From: Clostridia bacterium
GTDB lineage: Bacteria; Bacillota; Clostridia; Christensenellales; CAG-138
DNA length: 64,000 nucleotides
Assembly: GCA_036677445.1 (NCBI GenBank)
Contig: JAVBWI010000026.1
Location: forward strand, 271-64,270
Reading direction: 5' to 3'
Below are positions 1,785 to 48,859 of this stretch, piece by piece (positions within the stretch are counted from its first letter, which is position 1; each line of letters begins with the position of its first letter). Below the pieces are notes generated by a model. That model worked only from the letters and a program-made list of their open reading frames with translations. It ran no database searches and had not been told where the DNA came from. The position numbers and the translations under genes are program-made.

Positions 1785-2258
1785 ATGGCAGAGGTCAGGC
1801 TCACGCCGGAGGGCATCGCGAAATACGAGGAGCATCTGGAATATTTAAAGACCACTCGCAGGATGGAGATTGCCGAGCAGATCAAAATTGCGCGGTCATT
1901 TGGCGATCTTAGCGAAAACGCGGAGTACGACGCCGCCAAAAATGAACAGGCCAAGAATGAGTATGACATCGTTCAGCTTGAAAACATGTTGCGCAGTGCC
2001 GTTATCATCGATGAGGATTCGCTGGATACGGAAACTGTGAATGTCGGTGCTGTCGTGACCCTGCACAACGAAGAAGCAGCAGTGGATATGACCTATCACA
2101 TTGTGGGCTCCGCCGAAGCTGACCCGATGGAAGGGCGCATCTCCAACGAATCCCCCGTGGGTATGGCGATACTCGGCCATAAGGCCGGTGACGTAGTTGA
2201 AGTACAAACACCCGGCGGCTCCATACATTTGCGCATACTCGAGATCAAGAAGCAGTGA
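1785..2258 (+). CDS. greA: transcription elongation factor GreA
   Basis: ATG at 1785 follows AGGAGG (1772-1777). The product [22 protein letters not shown]... has the GreA coiled-coil N-domain and C-terminal globular domain. The track start at 1749 has no RBS. Confidence 0.9.
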
Positions 2259-2281
2259 CCCCCGCAAGAGAGGAATCGGAT

Positions 2282-3799
2282 ATGGATAACCAACAGACCC
2301 CCGCACCCCCTGAGCCGCAGCAGGAGCTGACTGAGCAGGAGCTTAGCGAGCTCCTGCAGATAAGACGGGACAAGCTTGCCGCGCTGCAAGCCGCGGGTAA
2401 AGACCCTTTTGAGGTAATGACATTTGATCAGACCCACCACAGCCAGGATATTGTGGATGGGTTTGAGGCACTCGAAGGCCAGACCGTCCGCATCGCCGGG
2501 CGCATGATGTCTAAAAGGATCATGGGCAAGGCCAGCTTTGCACATATACTCGACGGCAAGGGTACCGTTCAGGCGTACATCCGCAGGGATGATGTCGGCG
2601 AGGATGCTTATGCTGATTTTAAGGCATTGGATATAGGCGACATACTGGGCATCGAAGGCACGGTATTTAAGACCCGCACAGGCGAGATTTCCGTACACGC
2701 GCAAAGCGTCTCACTCTTGAGCAAGTCCCTGCGTCCGCTGCCGGAAAAGTTCCACGGCCTGAAGGATTCCGAGCTTCGTTATCGGCAGCGGTATGTGGAT
2801 CTGATCATGAACCCAGAAGTGCGCGAAACGTTTGTCAAGCGCAGCCGCATTATATCGCAGATACGCCGCAGGCTGGATGAGCAGGGCTTCCTCGAAGTGG
2901 AGACGCCCGTGCTCAACACCATACCCGGCGGCGCAAACGCGCGCCCCTTCGTTACGCACCATAACACGCTGGATATCGACCTGTACCTGCGCATCGCGAC
3001 CGAGCTTCCGCTCAAGGAATGCATCGTGGGCGGCCTTGAGCGCGTATATGAGATCGGCCGTATCTTCCGCAACGAGGGCATGGATATCAAGCACAACCCG
3101 GAGTTCACCACGCTGGAGCTGTATCAGGCGTATACGGATTATAACGGCATGATGGCGCTGGTGGAGGATTTGATCGCCCATTGCGCGAAAAGCGTGCTTG
3201 GCGATACCCGTATCGTCTATCAGGGCATCGAGATAGATCTGACGCCTCCGTTTGCCCGTATGACCATGAACGAGGCCGTAAAGCAGTTTACCGGCGCGGA
3301 TTTCTTCGCGTGCCAAACGGATGAAGAAGCGCGCGCGCTGGCATGTACACTGGGCCTGGAATTTGCGGATAAAACGATTACGCGCGGCAAGCTGCTCAAC
3401 GAAGCCTTCGAGGCATTTGTGGAAGAAAAGCTGATACAGCCCACTTTCATACTCGATTATCCTGTGGAGGTTTCGCCGCTTACCAAGCGCAAGCCGGGCA
3501 CGCCGTATGTGACGGAGCGTTTTGAGCTGTTCATAGGTACAAGGGAATATGCCAATGCGTATTCCGAACTTAACGACCCGGTCGACCAGCGCGGCCGGTT
3601 TATGCAGCAGATTTCCGAGCGTGAAAAGGGCGACGATGAGGCGATGATGATAGACGAGGATTTCTGCCTCTCGTTGGAATACGGCATGCCGCCCACCGGC
3701 GGTATCGGCGTGGGCATTGACCGGCTGGTGATGCTGCTGACGGATTCGTATTCGATACGCGACGTGTTGCTGTTCCCTACAATGAAGCCAAGACGTTGA
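2282..3799 (+). CDS. lysS: lysine--tRNA ligase (class II)
   Basis: ATG at 2282 follows GAGAGG. It has an OB-fold N-domain and class II motifs ([14 protein letters not shown]). The track's GTG start at 2255 overlaps the greA stop and is less likely. Confidence 0.93.
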
Positions 3800-3975
3800 A
3801 CGAGGCCTGGACGCGAAAGCAATGTGTTATACGCAGTTGTCCTTATAATGAAGCCAAGACGTTGAACGAGGCCTGGACGCGAAAGAAAATGTGTTATACG
3901 CAGTTGTCCTTATAATGAAGCCGAGACGTTAAATGCGTTAAAACGCAGACGTGAAGCAAATGTGTTACATGCATG
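3781..3975. repeat. tandem repeat (66-67 nt, about 2.9 copies) beginning inside the lysS 3' end
   Basis: Copy 1 is 3781-3846 and copy 2 is 3847-3913; they are near-identical, with one extra nt in copy 2. Copy 3, from 3914, has diverged. Each copy starts with AATGAAGCC(A/G)AGACGTT(G/A)A, which is the last five lysS codons plus the stop. Confidence 0.85.
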
Positions 3976-5012: not shown

Positions 5013-5291
5013 CGCGCTGCCCCAGCATATGGGGCAGCGCGCTGTATATATCGAAAAAGTGGAAGTATCCACTTTTTCGAGGCTCACCGAACAGGTTGTC
5101 GCTCGGTTTCCTGCTTACGCAGGAAAGCTGTCGCGTCAACTTGCGCTCTAAGGTGTCATTTTGCATTGCGCATGTCGATGCAAAATGACGGATTGGAAGC
5201 CTCAAGTTATACAAACAAATTGTCTCTTCACCGTCTGTAGGCTTTTTTACAGCTTGAATGCGTTGTCCCGTTATATGAGGCAGCGCGCTGT
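5013..5291. repeat. multi-hairpin intergenic insert flanked by two diverged copies of a terminator hairpin
   Basis: The hairpin CGCGCTGCCCC-AGCATAT-GGGGCAGCGCG (5013-5041) recurs at 5259-5291 (26/33 identical; 18/19 over the 3' half). Three independent stem-loops lie between the copies: 5052-5079, 5107-5126 and 5155-5189. Confidence 0.7.
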
Positions 5292-5417: not shown

Positions 5418-6500
5418 ATGAAAAAGCAATGGATTGCCCTATTCCTGTGTGCGCTGCTGGTGTTTGCAGTTGGATGCAGCGCACCAAAAAGTAACCAAGG
5501 CGCCCGTACCGAAGCGGCGATGCCTGCCCCTGTGGAGGCGCCCGCGGCCGAAGCGCCTGCGGAGTATGCGCAGGATTCCCAGTCAGTCAAAGGTGAGGAA
5601 AGCGGCTGGAGCGGCGGTGCGGGAAACGCGGCCGGCTCCGCACCGGACCAGGATTATGGCGGGCATAAAGTCATCAAGAACGCCGGGTTAGGATTGGAGA
5701 CGCGGGAATTCGACGCGGATCTCGCGTACATCAAGCAGAAGGTCATGGATATGGGCGGCTATATCTCCAACTCCTACGTCAGAGGCAGGAAACCCGAGAA
5801 CTACAATGACACCGGCCGCTATGCGAGCATTTCCATCCGCATCCCGCAGGAGCGTATGGAAGCGTTCCTGGCCGACGCGCGCGGCATCGCGACCGTGACT
5901 TATGAGAACAGCAGCGGCGAAGACATTACTTCTTCCTATTATGATACGGAATCGCGCCTGCAGATTTACGAGACCCAGCGCGAGCGCATCCTTGCGTTGC
6001 TCGCGAAAGCGGAAACCATGGAGGATATCATTTCGCTTGAGACGGAGCTTTCCCGCATCACCTATGAGATCGAGAGCCTGACTACGCAGCTCAAGCGTTG
6101 GGACGACCTGGTGGATTTCGCAACGGTTACCGTGGATCTGACCGAAATTCCGCCCGCCGTGGCTGTTGCCAGCAACGACGACATCGGCACGCGAATCAAC
6201 GAAGGCCTGGCGAGCACGTTGAGCGGCATGGCTGTGTTCTTTGAGAACCTGCTTGTGTTCCTGATCGCGGCTTCGCCCGTTCTGATACTGCTGGCTATTA
6301 TATTGGTTGTGGTGCTGCTCATATTAAGGGCGCGCCGCAAAAAACAAGCGAAGTTGATTGAGCAGGGCATACTGCCCGAGAAAAAGCGCTATCAGGCGTA
6401 TCAACCCCCGCAGCCCAACCAAGGCGGATACGGCACGCAGCCCCTGCCGCCGGTAACTCCCTCGCAGCCCCCCAAAGGACCGGAGCAACCCAAAGAATAA
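5418..6500 (+). CDS. DUF4349-like lipoprotein with C-terminal TM helix and Pro-rich tail
   Basis: ATG at 5418 follows GGGAGGA. Lipobox FAVGCS. The core resembles DUF4349, with a coiled region followed by a TM segment (LLVFLIAASPVLILLAIILVVVLLIL). Confidence 0.75.
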   Translation: MKKQWIALFLCALLVFAVGCSAPKSNQGARTEAAMPAPVEAPAAEAPAEYAQDSQSVKGEESGWSGGAGNAAGSAPDQDYGGHKVIKNAGLGLETREFDADLAYIKQKVMDMGGYISNSYVRGRKPENYNDTGRYASISIRIPQERMEAFLADARGIATVTYENSSGEDITSSYYDTESRLQIYETQRERILALLAKAETMEDIISLETELSRITYEIESLTTQLKRWDDLVDFATVTVDLTEIPPAVAVASNDDIGTRINEGLASTLSGMAVFFENLLVFLIAASPVLILLAIILVVVLLILRARRKKQAKLIEQGILPEKKRYQAYQPPQPNQGGYGTQPLPPVTPSQPPKGPEQPKE

Positions 6501-6519
6501 CGCATAGGAAATGCAATGC

Positions 6520-6766
6520 AAACGGCCCGCAGGCATGATCTGCGGGCCATGGCCGCTGACAAAGTCCATAGGACTTTGTCAGCGGATTTTCTGTAGGTTG
6601 AAATGCCGCTTTAGGTTGAAATGCCGCTTATGGCGGCACTCGCCGATTTGACGCACAAAAACGCTGCGCTGCCAGATCGGATTGAAATAGTGGGGAATTG
6701 AGATTCCCCACACCCCAGGAGGGTTTGCCAGTATTCTAAACGGCTCGCAGGCATGATCTGCGGGCC
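6520..6766. repeat. family-A multi-hairpin insert (copy 1) bracketed by a 29-nt direct duplication of a bidirectional terminator
   Basis: The direct repeats 6520-6548 and 6738-6766 are 28/29 identical. The interior (6549-6737) contains a perfect 15-bp stem (6553-6585), an 18-nt internal tandem duplication (6595-6630) and a 9-bp stem (6690-6711). It is homologous in inverted orientation to 25346-25524. Confidence 0.8.
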
Positions 6767-6774
6767 GTTTTAAG

Positions 6775-7752
6775 TCATTTTTCCGTCTCTATAGAGTATT
6801 TTGCGCCATCCATCGTGATATGGATCGTACCGGATACATCCGTCCGGTAAAACGGAATATCGGCGCTTTTGAGCGCCTGCACGACCTCCTCGTGCGGGTG
6901 GCCGTATTCGTTGTTCGCGCCAAGGCTGGCGACGGCAGCCTCCGGGCCGATCGCGTCGAGAAACGCCGCAGAGGTGGAGGAGTTGGAGCCGTGATGCCCC
7001 ACCTTAAGCACTGTGGAGCGGAAGTAAGATGCAGGCAGCTGTTTGAGCGCGGCTTTTTCCGCATAGCGTTCCGCATCGCCGGTAAGCAATATCGAGGTGT
7101 CGCCAAAACGCACGCGGCAAACGACGCTTGCGTCATTCAGGTCGTCGTATGTAACATCTGCAAGGGGAGAAAGTATGCGTATTTCCACCTGATCGTCCCA
7201 CTCGATGAAGGCGTTCTCGCCTCCGACAGCCTTTTTGACGGAAATGTTCTGCGCGTCCAGCGCGTCGATGAGATTTTCGAACATTTTTGTCTCATTCACG
7301 GCATCCGGCATATAGTATGTGCCGACCTCGTAGTTGGAGAGCACCTGCCGCATGCCGCCGATATGATCTGCGTGCGGGTGGGTGCCGATCACGACATCCA
7401 GCATGGTCACACCCTGTTCCTTCAGAAAGCCGTCGATACGTTCGTACATATCGCTGGTACTGGCATCCACCAGCATAGTTTTGCCGGAAGGGCTGCGTAA
7501 AAATATGCTGTCGCCCTGCCCGACATCCAGTACATATACGTCAAGCATGCCTTCCGCTGCGGAGGGCCGCCCAGCGGAGGGCTGCTCGGCGGGGGACTCC
7601 GTAAGGCCTGCGGCCGGGCTCCCCTCAAACAAGCTGAAAATGCCTAAGGAACCTTCCATGAAACAGTCGATCGCAAACAGAAGACCCAATACCATGAAAA
7701 GCGCGATCAGTGAGCGGACATGTTTGTTTAGACGCTTTTTGGATTTAGCCAT
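6775..7752 (-). CDS. membrane-anchored MBL-fold hydrolase, ComEC/Rec2 C-terminal-domain type
   Basis: ATG at 7752 follows AGGTGAG. N-terminal TM helix, then metallo-beta-lactamase motifs (LDVGQGDS, THPHADHIGG, GHHGS). Confidence 0.8.
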   Translation of the reverse strand: MAKSKKRLNKHVRSLIALFMVLGLLFAIDCFMEGSLGIFSLFEGSPAAGLTESPAEQPSAGRPSAAEGMLDVYVLDVGQGDSIFLRSPSGKTMLVDASTSDMYERIDGFLKEQGVTMLDVVIGTHPHADHIGGMRQVLSNYEVGTYYMPDAVNETKMFENLIDALDAQNISVKKAVGGENAFIEWDDQVEIRILSPLADVTYDDLNDASVVCRVRFGDTSILLTGDAERYAEKAALKQLPASYFRSTVLKVGHHGSNSSTSAAFLDAIGPEAAVASLGANNEYGHPHEEVVQALKSADIPFYRTDVSGTIHITMDGAKYSIETEK

Positions 7753-7930: not shown

Positions 7931-8827
7931 ATGAGAAAAGGCGTGTTGTTCGTTTTACTGGGGGCGGCCATGTGGGCCACGCTTCCCATATTCAGCCGGT
8001 ATGTATATAGTAATGGCAGCGATCCTGTTACGGCGGCCGCATGGCGCGCGTATCTGGCTGCAGGCATATTTCTCGTGTGGTTCCTTGCGGACGGGACATT
8101 GAAAAAATTGTGCTGGAAGGAACTTCCGTTCTACCTGCTGTATGGCGTGGTGGGCGTAGGCGGCACATTTTTGTTTTATATGCTGGCCGTGGAGCGGCTG
8201 TCCACGGCAATGGCGGCGATGCTGTTGTATACCGCGCCTGCTTTTGTAATACTCCTCAACCGCATTTTTTACCGGGAGCCAATCACAAAAACGAAGCTGA
8301 TCGCGCTGCTGTGCACATTCGGGGGCTGTTTTCTTGTCGTGCGCGGATATGATCCGGCCGCGCTCTTTGCAAGCGGAGGCGGTATATTGATCGGCCTTCT
8401 GTCCGGGGTCAGTTATTCCATGGTTACCGTACTCGGCCGCGCCGCAGGGCGCAAGCATGATTCCCGCACAAACGCCGGATTGATGATACTGTTCGGCTCG
8501 CTGATATTCCTGTTCCTCCGGCCGCCATGGGAGCTTACCGCGCCCAGCGCGCCATTATGGCTGGGCTATGCGGGCCTGGCGCTTATCGGCAGCGTGGGTG
8601 CGTATCTTGCATACCTGAGGGGCTTGTCCTGCGGGCTGGAGGGCGGAGTCGCCAGTATCACCGCCACTGCGGAACCGGTGATCGCCACGCTGCTTGGCGT
8701 GCTGTGCTTCGGCGATTTGCTTGAGATTTGGCAGGTGCTCGGCATAGCAGTCGTGTTTACCGGCGTGGCGCTGCCCATGCTGTATGGAAGCATTACCAGG
8801 AATTCGGCGAATTCGGCACAAGGTTGA
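7931..8827 (+). CDS. EamA/DMT-family transporter
   Basis: 298-aa protein with about 10 TM segments and the duplicated EamA architecture. Confidence 0.8.
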   Translation: MRKGVLFVLLGAAMWATLPIFSRYVYSNGSDPVTAAAWRAYLAAGIFLVWFLADGTLKKLCWKELPFYLLYGVVGVGGTFLFYMLAVERLSTAMAAMLLYTAPAFVILLNRIFYREPITKTKLIALLCTFGGCFLVVRGYDPAALFASGGGILIGLLSGVSYSMVTVLGRAAGRKHDSRTNAGLMILFGSLIFLFLRPPWELTAPSAPLWLGYAGLALIGSVGAYLAYLRGLSCGLEGGVASITATAEPVIATLLGVLCFGDLLEIWQVLGIAVVFTGVALPMLYGSITRNSANSAQG

Positions 8828-9467
8828 GCATATCCTCTTCGTTGTTGACGTCCGTAAAGGCCTCCGGAACCTTGCCCACGATAATGTGCTCGGCTACGGG
8901 CACATCCACCTGTGAAGCGACGACACACGTGCTGCCGGGCAATACTACGGCGAATTGAACCTCCAACCGCAGCACAACCCGGTGAAGAGTCTGGTTGATG
9001 CCTGCCGTGCGGAACTCGCTTGAGAATGCGGTGCGCACATTGCTTTCAGGGTGGAATGTCATATGCAGCATCGGCCCTGTTCCGGAAAACAACGGGATAC
9101 CCGTCGCGGTACCCATAGGGATATCGATGCCCTGCTTCCCGATGGATGCTACGCGCGATTGGGCGGCCTGTGCGCAGCGTGATGCAAACAGGTTAAGCGC
9201 ACGGTTATTGAGCTCGATATAATAAACCTGATCCTGCGTTTGCAGTATGTCGACGAACTCTGTGGAGGTCTCATCCGCCGCAAGGCATTCCAATACGGCG
9301 GCATACATCGCGTCGGAAGCCGCGGATTGCACGCGAATCTCCGCAAGGCGCGCCAGCGCGGGCTGCAGCTGCGCATTGATGAACGCGTACGCCAACGCAA
9401 GCAGCAGTATGACCGCGCCCAGTATGACATAGATCTTCCGCCGCCGCGGCCGCTTTCGAAGCTCCAT
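8793..9467 (-). CDS. yunB: sporulation protein YunB
   Basis: Start chosen at MELRKRPRRRK (9467). An N-terminal TM helix is followed by a YunB-like core (IDIPMGTATGIPLFSGTGP...INQTLHRVVL). The 3' end overlaps the convergent EamA gene by 35 nt. Confidence 0.78.
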   Translation of the reverse strand: MELRKRPRRRKIYVILGAVILLLALAYAFINAQLQPALARLAEIRVQSAASDAMYAAVLECLAADETSTEFVDILQTQDQVYYIELNNRALNLFASRCAQAAQSRVASIGKQGIDIPMGTATGIPLFSGTGPMLHMTFHPESNVRTAFSSEFRTAGINQTLHRVVLRLEVQFAVVLPGSTCVVASQVDVPVAEHIIVGKVPEAFTDVNNEEDMLNLVPNSPNSW

Positions 9468-9659: not shown

Positions 9660-9736
9660 GGGGATGTAGCCCAGCAGGTTAGAGCGCTTCGCTCACATCG
9701 AAGAGGTCGGGGGTTCGAGCCCCTCCATCCCCACCA
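9660..9736 (+). tRNA. tRNA-Val (anticodon CAC), CCA encoded
   Basis: Cloverleaf built by hand. Acceptor GGGGATG/CATCCCC, anticodon stem CTTCG/CGAAG with loop CTCACAT, T-arm GGGGG-TTCGAGC-CCCTC. There is one C-A mismatch in the D-stem. A TTGCAT-17-TAATAT promoter-like match lies at 9616-9644. Confidence 0.85.
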
Positions 9737-9918
9737 TACAAAGGCCGCCCAAAAGGCGGTCTTTTTGTATGGTGCGATATTTCAAAGGGGCTCGAAGCCG
9801 CGTTAAGAAATCGCTCCAGTGGAGCGATTTTAGCGGCCGCGAAGCGCAGCCGACCAAAGCTGCGAGCGGTGTGAGCGAGCAGCGGGAGGCAAGCGGAGGA
9901 GCCTCTCCATCCCCACCA
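9717..9918. repeat. 162-nt hairpin-rich insert bracketed by a 20-nt duplication of the tRNA-Val 3' end
   Basis: GAGCCCCTCCATCCCCACCA (9717-9736, the tRNA 3' end) recurs as GAGCCTCTCCATCCCCACCA (9899-9918), 19/20 identical. The interior starts with the A-tract/stem/T-tract hairpin 9736-9770 and contains the GAAATCGCTCC-AGT-GGAGCGATTT hairpin. Confidence 0.8.
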
Positions 9919-9936
9919 AAATTTTAGGTAGTTATA

Positions 9937-25323: not shown

Positions 25324-25546
25324 AAACCTCCAGAAGTTCTGGAGGTTCAGAGTATCGATAAACCCTCTCCATGGGGGTGTGGCGGAGTAGAATACCCCCA
25401 CTTTTAATCCGATTTGACATCGCAGCGTCTTTGTGCGTCAAATCGGCGGAAAAATGCCGCATGAGCGGCATTTTAACCCACCAAAAACCCATCGACAAAG
25501 TCCACAGGACTTTGTCGATGGTCTAAACATCCAGAAGTTCTGGAGG
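25324..25546. repeat. family-A multi-hairpin insert (copy 2, inverted) bracketed by a 22-nt direct duplication of a hairpin
   Basis: AAAC(C/A)TCCAGAAGTTCTGGAGG occurs at 25324-25345 and 25525-25546 (21/22 identical). The interior (25346-25524) is collinear with the reverse complement of 6549-6737 and includes a perfect 15-bp stem at 25489-25521. Confidence 0.8.
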
Positions 25547-37106: not shown

Positions 37107-37135
37107 CAAGGGCCGGTCCGGTGGACCGGCCCTTG
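37107..37135 (+). terminator. stem-loop after the MerR gene
   Basis: 13-bp perfect stem CAAGGGCCGGTCC/GGACCGGCCCTTG with a 3-nt loop. No T-tract follows, so function as an intrinsic terminator is uncertain. Confidence 0.45.
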
Positions 37136-37142
37136 AGATTGT

Positions 37143-37300
37143 CAAAAAAGTGACTGCGTCACTTTTTTGAGCTTCACAGGAACCGTCTGCATCTTTAATG
37201 GCGGCGACGGCCCACAGGCCTAGTGTCCGAGGCGTCTCCCGCCGAGGACCGGCGGTTCCTGCAAGGGAAGCCTTGCGCCGCAAGGCTTTTCGCTCGCGCC
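37143..37300. repeat. hairpin / GC-rich modular intergenic repeat (family B related)
   Basis: Contains the A-tract/stem/T-tract hairpin CAAAAAAGTGAC-TGC-GTCACTTTTTTG (37143-37169) and the long-range pairing CAGGAACCG (37177-37185) / CGGTTCCTG (37253-37261). The 26-mer at 37204-37229 is shared with 16511-16536. Confidence 0.6.
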
Positions 37301-37556
37301 GCACATGTCGCCGCTCGCGAATGAAGCCTATTACGGTAGTAGTTTGCTAGCCATCAAAGACTTTCTTGACACTCTGAAGGGCGAACTACCCGATCGGCCC
37401 TTATTGCATGAATCAGGATGCCGTACATTGCGGTATTTCTTCCGCGAATCCCACGTATGGTATATGGAACACCATATACGTCTGCAACTGCGCGTAAAAT
37501 CATTTCAGAAACAGATCAAAAGGTCGCGGCGTAAATCCAACGTGAAGGAGAACGGC

Positions 37557-48634: not shown

Positions 48635-48859
48635 ATAACGCTCCCGCGTTAGTTCGAATAGTTGAGCTGCTTGCCTGTGTTGGCCAGCAGCTTATTGCGT
48701 GCCGACAAAAGGCCAGTGGCACTTTGTAGAGGTTTACCGCGCAAGTATAATACAGGGATGGCGTATCTTCCACTCCAAATTCTGTGCAGGGAGCAAATCT
48801 GCCCTTCCAGGCGCCGATTGCCGCGCAAATAAACGCTCCCGCAGGTTGCCTGCGGGAGC
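48635..48859. repeat. probable degenerate third copy of the family-A hairpin element; its right end doubles as a minus-strand terminator
   Basis: CGACAAAAGGCCAGTGGCACTTTGT (48702-48726) resembles the 15-bp-stem module. GCGCCGATTGCCGCGCAAATAAACGCT (48811-48837) resembles 6641-6665, in the same order as copy 1. ATAACGCTCCCGC (48635-48647) recurs at 48829-48842. There is an 11-bp perfect stem at 48835-48859. Confidence 0.45.

Follow-up and report, generated by a model that had tools for sequence, protein, structure and literature searches.

Two elements of the IS1182 insertion sequence (IS) family, IS1272 and TnSha1, which have a DDE transposase of that family, always integrate into hairpins, mostly transcription terminators and confirmed as such by RNA-seq, without sequence specificity (PMC4923244), and repeated independent insertions into one terminator, in both orientations, have been reported for them (PMC4923244, PMC5678879); both papers credit palindrome targeting by some IS1182 members to Siguier et al. 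2015. Strand transfer on an extruded cruciform was described as structure-dependent, and a hypothetical pathway (pathway b) was proposed in which the whole stem-loop would be duplicated if the transposon ends join at its 5' feet (PMC5678879). Here we describe a 189-nt insert, A1, that lies between two copies of a terminator hairpin in a 64,000-nucleotide stretch of DNA from a Clostridia bacterium (GCA_036677445.1, contig JAVBWI010000026.1; this whole stretch is referred to as the window). We consider it very probable that A1 is a non-autonomous MITE (miniature inverted-repeat transposable element), belonging to a superfamily derived from or mobilised by IS1182-family IS, whose hairpin target was chosen by shape and duplicated whole.

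Bacterial class C group II introns also home just downstream of terminator stem-loops; unlike A1, these are ribozyme/reverse-transcriptase retroelements that measure 600 nt or more and are not known to have inverted ends or to duplicate their target, and Rfam identified no intron domains in the window or A1. Small, non-coding, intergenic and repeated elements with inverted ends include the Correia, RUP and ERIC MITEs, and some of the REP-targeting IS (IS1397, ISKpn1, IS1111-type) prefer palindromic REP sequences. In contrast to what is described below, such classical MITEs and REP-targeting IS make short fixed duplications (2–10 bp) or none, and insert within or beside a palindrome, which they are not known to duplicate as a whole.

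A 189-nt Insert Flanked by a Duplicated Hairpin

The initial annotation, made from the DNA sequence alone, had described a 29-nt direct repeat, AAACGGC(C/T)CGCAGGCATGATCTGCGGGCC, at 6520–6548 and 6738–6766, and this is indeed present, with 28/29 identity; the chance expectation for 28/29 repeat pairs up to 4 kb apart in the window is ~9e-8. Also as described there, each copy forms a hairpin with a 9-bp stem, and GTTTT adjoins the right copy only, where it is able to pair with the leading AAAC (13-bp arms 6520–6532 and 6758–6770). The site has the following features.

6520..6548, no strand assigned: left hairpin copy, AAAC plus a 9-bp stem with a 7-nt loop; its T-run was lost to the insert
6738..6771, no strand assigned: right hairpin copy, with one C-to-T change; the host T-run GTTTT is retained
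6549..6737, + strand: MITE copy A1, 189 nt, non-coding; boundaries good to about 1–3 nt
6548..6567, + strand: A1 left terminal inverted repeat, CATGGCCGCTGACAAAGTCC, the left arm of the 5' hairpin; compared with the ends of ISEfa7 and other elements
6553..6585, + strand: A1 5' hairpin, a perfect 15-bp stem with a 3-nt loop, in which the left end pairs with an inner inverted copy
6591..6608 and 6609..6626, + strand: tandem duplication of 18 nt, 17/18 identity, specific to A1 and missing from its relative A2
6640..6691, + strand: A1 conserved interior module, a CCGATTTGAC stem, a GCACA-containing loop, then CGGATTGAAAT
6690..6711, + strand: A1 3' stem-loop, GTGGGGAAT-TGAG-ATTCCCCAC, 9 bp, at the same position as the G+C-rich 3' hairpin of other families
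6716..6738, + strand: A1 right terminal inverted repeat, ...GGGTTTGCCAGTATTCTA, with reverse complement TAGAATACTGGCAAACCC

The 15-bp stem and the 3' stem-loop had been correctly located before, the tandem duplication had been placed a few bases off (6595–6630), and the interior GATTTGAC-type stem that had been listed with them is imperfect (decayed) in A1 and a perfect 10-bp stem in A2. A1 folds much better than its shuffled controls (z = -6.0), and the 5' hairpin followed by ATTTTCTG had a terminator-like score. The only open reading frame (ORF) listed at A1 is one of 81 aa on the reverse strand (6324–6569), overlapping the first 21 nt of the element. A search of Rfam 15 at the gathering threshold identified only tRNA in the window or in L031, a contig from a relative with ~65% protein identity, and nothing over six MITE-bearing loci; sensitive Rfam scans of A1, the window element C (see below) and an array on L031 gave only sub-threshold, chance-level matches. 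A blastn search with A1 against plasmids and phages, and scans of viral contigs with three probes, found no match. The initial annotation had also considered that the interior might turn out to belong to a known RNA or to an IS end: no Rfam family matched, and the ends are shared with IS1182-family elements, as shown below.

One Terminator in Three States

As had been noted, A1 lies between convergent genes, the second of which, previously called ComEC-like, encodes a metallo-beta-lactamase (MBL)-fold protein.

5418..6500, + strand: upstream flanking gene, DUF4349 protein, 360-aa product P0121, 100% identical
6775..7752, - strand: convergent flanking gene, MBL-fold protein, named ComEC/Rec2 family by sources, 325 aa by analogy with P0001

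The true start of the DUF4349 gene is five codons inside the longest ORF. An empty site at the orthologous junction, which the initial annotation had proposed to look for, was identified in L155, a Logan contig of a relative with an 86% identical DUF4349 protein: here the DUF4349/MBL junction carries a single hairpin, AAAACGGCCCGC-AGAGAA-GCGGGCCGTTTT, and no insert. In L153, from the same strain and with an identical DUF4349 protein, A1 is present exactly as in the window, and mobility is thus evident at this locus as a presence/absence polymorphism with a precise empty site. A third contig, L030, whose MBL protein is 98% identical, has the same hairpin and, after it, an oppositely oriented C-type MITE (2082–2209), inside which the contig stops. 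One terminator is therefore seen in three states: empty, with A1, and with another family member. This recalls IS1272 and TnSha1, which likewise take stem-loops as targets regardless of sequence, the A1 terminator being found empty, filled by A1, or filled by another MITE in reverse; those elements differ in being autonomous or composite, whereas A1 is a 189-nt non-autonomous derivative.

Related Elements in the Window

Further MITEs were found in the window, B and C having emerged when the whole window was searched for direct repeats and perfect hairpins.

25346..25524, - strand: MITE copy A2, 179 nt, ~78% identity to A1, between convergent genes
25324..25345, no strand assigned: A2 host hairpin AAACCTCCAGAAGTTCTGGAGG, right-end copy; the two copies are 21/22 identical
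25525..25546, no strand assigned: A2 host hairpin, left-end copy, 21/22 identical to the right-end copy
5046..5259, + strand: MITE copy B, of a different family, 3' of a sortase-gene terminator
37136..37376, + strand: MITE copy C, directly after a terminator hairpin (37107–37135), inverted ends 14/16

B is flanked by a decayed 32-nt whole-hairpin duplication (5014–5045 and 5260–5291, 26/32), and the right flank of C holds a decayed second hairpin copy (37377–37402). As B is also present in relatives (L155 and L156), where it is truncated at its 3' side, we take it to be an old insertion common to the relative in which the 3' part has since been lost, and the decayed duplication fits with this. 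Since A2, B and C each lie beside their own, different duplicated hairpin, the flanking hairpins derive from the target and are not element ends, as the initial annotation had argued. The window elements all begin with a short spacer and a perfect 13–15 bp stem (3–4 nt loop), followed by more stems. An nhmmer profile built solely from 11 metagenome MITEs matched exactly these four elements in the window, each in the right orientation, with E-values of 2.6e-14 for C (full-length), 1.2e-5 for B, 2e-4 for A1 (6641–6726) and 2.1e-4 for A2 (25453–25353).

A possible fifth, degenerate MITE left end, CCGACAAAAGGCC-AGT-GGCACTTTGTAG, at ~48695–48760 had a marginal profile score (E = 0.058); it sits just after a hairpin, GAGCTGCTTGCC…GGCCAGCAGCTT, and a perfect 11-bp hairpin is found nearby at 48835–48859. 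Within element C, a 47-nt module (37205–37251, …CGACGGCCCACAGGCCTAGTGTCCGAGGCG…) is ~92% identical to two segments of L031 (8443–8486 and 8651–8698), which there belong to tRNA-adjacent units, in genomes that share only ~65% protein identity. The module lies within a stem where related MITEs have a short loop, and either nested insertion or module shuffling could account for it.

Metagenome Relatives and the Geometry of the Duplications

A metagenome scan with the 5' hairpin common to B, C and the L030 element, AAAAAGTGN{6,8}CACTTTTTYGAGSYT, returned at least 120 loci, mostly from human gut, with many of the matches at contig ends. The dominant gut family has clean inverted ends (left CAGGCTGTCGAAAAAG, right TTTTTCGACAGGCTG). 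At no fewer than 19 distinct metagenome sites, a second copy of the sequence next to the left end follows the right end; the hairpin duplicated in this way differs from site to site, and the copy is often perfect. With the L155 empty site and the window copies, these sites confirm the proposal of the initial annotation that the element inserted into a host hairpin and that this hairpin was duplicated.

The 19 metagenome sites and A1, A2 and B make up a set of 22 distinct duplication-flanked sites among the matches listed. Across this set the duplication is 12–37 nt long (median 26), most of its boundaries are no more than ~5 nt away from the stem feet (largest offset 8 nt), and its length is correlated with that of the hairpin (r = 0.66). 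Stems of at least 9 bp were found at 86% of the sites, versus 1.6% of random 50-nt windows, and the target hairpin sequences are unrelated across the set. Two copies of the dominant gut MITE (L037 and L134) lie in AT-rich targets that form no hairpin, and have exact 7-nt duplications there (ATATTTC and ATGTTTA), which suggests that the intrinsic stagger of the enzyme is ~7 bp. Across the same set of 22 sites, most of the MITEs point in the direction of the terminator T-run (12 versus 2, p = 0.013 by a crude test), which could stem from selection on a transcribed strand or from strand-biased capture of targets.

Long target duplications are also known in the IS1202 family (formerly ISNCY), whose unusually long direct repeats reach 27–28 bp (bioRxiv 10.1101/2022.12.17.520857), and the duplications at A1 (29 nt) and at B and C (~28–32 nt) come near this class. 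A MITE of that family, with direct repeats of 27–28 (or 16–17, or 5–6) bp, is nevertheless very improbable here. IS1202 elements have repeats in fixed classes and TGT ends, and one subgroup targets Xer sites, none of which matches our elements: these open with CAG, TAG or CAT and not with TGT or TaT/TgT. Nor do the duplications here form fixed classes: they range continuously over 12–37 nt, following the size of the hairpin, and measure 7 nt where the target is not a hairpin. In addition, the full-length partner described below scores as IS1182, its only ISNCY-type NCBIfam match being to NF033593, at 82.6 bits against a cut-off of 325.

An origin without transposition, either with the terminator duplicated in situ on both sides of a structured RNA gene that was already there or through att-like site-specific integration, would agree with the RNA-gene-like conserved secondary structure of the interior, and a 22-nt 3'-end duplication at a tRNA-Val gene in the window does resemble an integrase footprint. 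We regard such a local origin as scarcely credible, as the element family occupies many unrelated sites, and there is no common att sequence since the duplicated hairpin differs at each of them; the A1 site is, moreover, polymorphic among close relatives (empty, A1 or other MITE), and Rfam gave no match.

Full-Length IS1182-Family Elements With the Same Ends

The terminal inverted repeats are imperfect, with the consensus CAGnnTGTCGAnAAAG, and this is common to the gut MITEs, C, A2 and three full-length IS (the L144 IS, the pTVN IS and ISEfa7), and is weaker in A1 and B. The L144 contig carries a 1.57-kb element bounded by MITE-type ends (CAGGCTGTCGAAAAAGG...GGGTTTTTCGACAGACTG); its 491-aa ORF is an IS1182-family transposase (NCBIfam NF033551, 405.6 bits, cut-off 270) with the Pfam domains DUF772, DDE_Tnp_1_6 and DDE_Tnp_1. 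The finished plasmid pTVN of Thermocaproicibacter melissae has a 1526-bp IS, a relative with 67% identity, that has the same ends and a hairpin at each end. ISEfa7, an IS1182-like element of Enterococcus faecium plasmids, has the ends CAGACTGTAGACAAAGTCC...TTTTGTCTACAGTCTG, and one copy, in the finished plasmid pELF_AA94, has on its flanks a perfect 25-nt duplication of an entire hairpin (AAACGATGCCTATTTAGCATCGTTT); full-length elements therefore behave as the MITEs do.

ISEfa7 resembles the MITEs in its family-A-like ends and in a left-end hairpin formed with an inner inverted copy, a layout of the 5' hairpin that is common to every MITE family and is also found at the left end of the L144 element. 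It differs in its length (~1.55 kb), its intact transposase gene and the lack of any counterpart to the multi-stem MITE interior, and its transposase is only 46% identical to that of the gut family. Family A has the 12-mer GACAAAGTCCAT in common with the ISEfa7 left end, the A-type ends include the sequence …GACAAAGTCC…, and the A2 ends match the IS1182-type consensus at 11–15 of 16–19 positions. The A1 interior module is homologous to the GGATTTGNCG...CAAATCCGATTA module of gut MITEs, and family A shares with the MITEs that have an IS1182 partner both interior architecture and a GGGTTT...CTG layout of the right end.

The initial annotation had held that a 20–30-nt duplication containing a whole hairpin does not fit the 2–14-bp target-site duplications of the IS and MITE classes it knew; the novelty that this implied did not stand, since such a duplication fits the IS1182 family in view of the shared ends and the published work (PMC4923244, PMC5678879). 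As IS1182 members have already been published as sequence-independent targeters of terminator hairpins, A1 belongs to a known group of hairpin targeters and does not represent a new class. For the IS1182 family, ISfinder reportedly gives direct repeats of 0–60 bp.

Family A might instead consist of hairpin-duplicating MITEs mobilised by a non-IS1182 transposase, with the similarity of their ends convergent or ancient. We found no autonomous A-type element, the A1 ends are degenerate, and a search of 185,579 representative genomes with the family-A core 18-mer GCCGATTTGACGCACAAA gave 29 loci, all of them chance matches and none in an element context. Set against this are the A2 ends and the ISEfa7 12-mer, as well as the interior architecture and right-end layout shared with MITEs partnered by IS1182, and we consider a different enzyme unlikely.

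IS200/IS605 elements are not known to make target duplications, and they insert beside a short specific motif. Movement as single-stranded DNA by an HUH/Y1 transposase of this type, or as RNA through target-primed reverse transcription (a bacterial short interspersed element, SINE), could draw on the strong, one-stranded structure of the interior, conserved with compensatory changes, on duplication lengths that vary as in long and short interspersed element insertions, and on the orientation bias relative to the T-run. It is highly unlikely, given that inverted ends and duplications are clearly present and a DDE-transposase partner has matching ends, that the perfect hairpin is at the left end only, whereas IS200/IS605 have subterminal hairpins at both ends, that no gene for a reverse transcriptase or HUH enzyme was seen in the neighbourhood of any of the copies, and that duplications of 7 nt, as in the plain targets, are what DDE strand transfer typically leaves. 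In view of the inverted ends and DDE partner, Cas1/casposase-like, integrase/att, group IIC intron, retron, bridge-RNA/omega-RNA and SINE-like candidates were also set aside.

A Model for Insertion and the Evidence Against It

We propose that IS1182-type mobilisation of family A would proceed as follows. A DDE transposase, supplied in trans by a full-length element elsewhere in the genome, would pick its targets by shape, that is, a stem-loop, typically an intrinsic terminator, extruded as a cruciform or as a single-strand hairpin. The two transposon 3' ends would be joined to the stem at its two 5' feet, one per strand, either exactly there or no more than a few nucleotides away, and gap repair would then copy the whole stem-loop on both sides of the element, so that the duplication would be as long as the hairpin (29 nt here, 12–37 nt elsewhere). 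A short, fixed stagger across the base of the extruded structure might yield both kinds of duplication, being 7 bp in ordinary duplex. After insertion, the left hairpin copy is without a T-run and the right copy retains it, the A1 5' hairpin and its T-rich tail forming a putative substitute terminator; given the terminator-like score of this hairpin, the terminator stack that the initial annotation had raised is plausible.

Several observations weigh against this interpretation. With respect to the enzyme, the 64-kb window, which is the part of the source genome covered here, encodes no transposase (a tblastn search with that of IS1182 found nothing), and no autonomous element with family-A ends was found, a partner being identified for the gut MITE family only (L144). 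The link between family A and an IS1182 enzyme consequently draws on end similarity, shared architecture and behaviour. The inverted ends of A1 itself are weak (7/8 core), and its first and last bases deviate from the CAG...CTG consensus. With respect to the target, IS1272, the best-studied member of the family, and TnSha1 remove some or all of the stem-loop that they enter, and no duplication results (PMC4923244, PMC5678879). This stem-loop-replacing mode was not encountered among our elements, as whole duplications are present at A1, A2, B, the metagenome sites (19 or more) and the ISEfa7 copy of pELF_AA94. A cruciform or hairpin state of the target is suggested by the geometry of the duplications only.

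The initial annotation had asked whether every copy is bracketed by a duplicated hairpin, and this was so at A2, B, C and at least 19 metagenome sites, but not throughout. Among the matches listed, 17 loci of the dominant gut family have both MITE ends and no duplication; a hairpin is present at one or both ends in 14 of these and absent from three. Three full-length IS copies in plasmid records also lack a duplication: in two of them, from finished plasmids, the hairpins at the two ends differ, and in the third only the right end has one. The simple model alone leaves such loci unaccounted for, and some metagenome contigs that run through a 200-nt repeat may be chimeras. The no-duplication loci were checked for longer elements and proved to be ordinary MITEs of 200–245 nt, L144 being the only full-length IS among the matches listed.

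Different hairpins at the two MITE ends were observed in L034, L048, L051, L083, L084, L107, L109, L110, L121, L135 and others, and, among full-length IS records, in L158/L159 (pTVN) and in L160 and L161 (ISEfa7), so that the pattern also occurs in plasmid records, outside short-read metagenome assemblies. Some flanks recur: the right hairpin of L107 resembles the left hairpin of L051, and the right flank of L048 is the reverse complement of the left flank of L146 plus its duplicated hairpin. Recombination between copies, intramolecular transposition and assembly chimeras are all possible origins of the copies with two different hairpins. A 244-nt variant of the dominant gut MITE (L074, L128, L142, L063, L121 and L135) carries a 45-nt hairpin-forming insertion, which sits in the loop of a conserved GGATTTG…CAAATCC stem.

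For annotation, our findings mean that such inserts are to be treated as mobile elements, and not as novel RNA genes or a new transposon class, and that duplicated terminators beside ~200-nt structured inserts in Clostridia and gut metagenomes can be read as footprints of IS1182-type MITEs. The data support the branch in which the entire stem-loop is duplicated, which had only been hypothesised, for IS1272, and the series from 7 nt in plain DNA to 12–37 nt at stem-loops is indirect in-vivo evidence that terminator palindromes are extruded when the transposase strikes. These MITEs are abundant in gut metagenomes, where they break assemblies at terminators, and they rewire gene 3' ends by taking the T-run from one hairpin copy and bringing in a new hairpin that has a T-rich tail.

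A Conserved Multi-Stem Interior

The multi-stem architecture of the interior is common to families that differ in sequence. In an alignment of eight family representatives only, the consensus structure has seven helices and 42 pairs, and 15–16 of the pairs keep their pairing through changes on both sides; 93.6% of the cells are paired, versus 40–54% with slid partners, and the observed covariation was reached by none of 500 shuffles of these eight sequences. G-U-type pairs outnumber A-C on this strand of the interior. In both A1 and A2 one stem no longer pairs, as expected of decaying copies. No counterpart of the interior was identified in the full-length IS elements examined, nor any Rfam family.

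On account of the covariation, the one-strand G-U bias, the 12:2 orientation and the lack of an IS counterpart or Rfam match, we tentatively raise the possibility, which we hold to be somewhat doubtful, that the interior is no passive filler but functions, in a strand-specific manner, as a structured RNA or a single-strand DNA fold that the MITE lineage has retained in different families and genomes. If so, it might promote transposition of the element itself or target capture, or might serve the host as a replacement terminator or 3'-end stabiliser; the latter role, if true, would account for the persistence of elements co-oriented with terminators.

Other Repeats in the Window

The last 22 nt (9717–9738) at the tRNA-Val gene (9660–9736) are repeated 182 nt downstream (9899–9920), around a 160-nt non-coding stretch, and this may represent another small element that targets a tRNA 3' end, or an integrase footprint. 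In L031, the region 8400–8900 consists of ~210-nt tandem units beside a tRNA gene, each opening with a 17-nt copy of the tRNA 3' end, and the hairpin AAATCGCTCC...GGAGCGATTT is common to these units and to the stretch beside tRNA-Val in the window. Elsewhere in the window (3774–3933), near-perfect repeats of 46–49 nt with a spacing of 66–67 nt (~2.4 tandem units) are situated where an ORF at 2255–3799 ends, or immediately beyond it.

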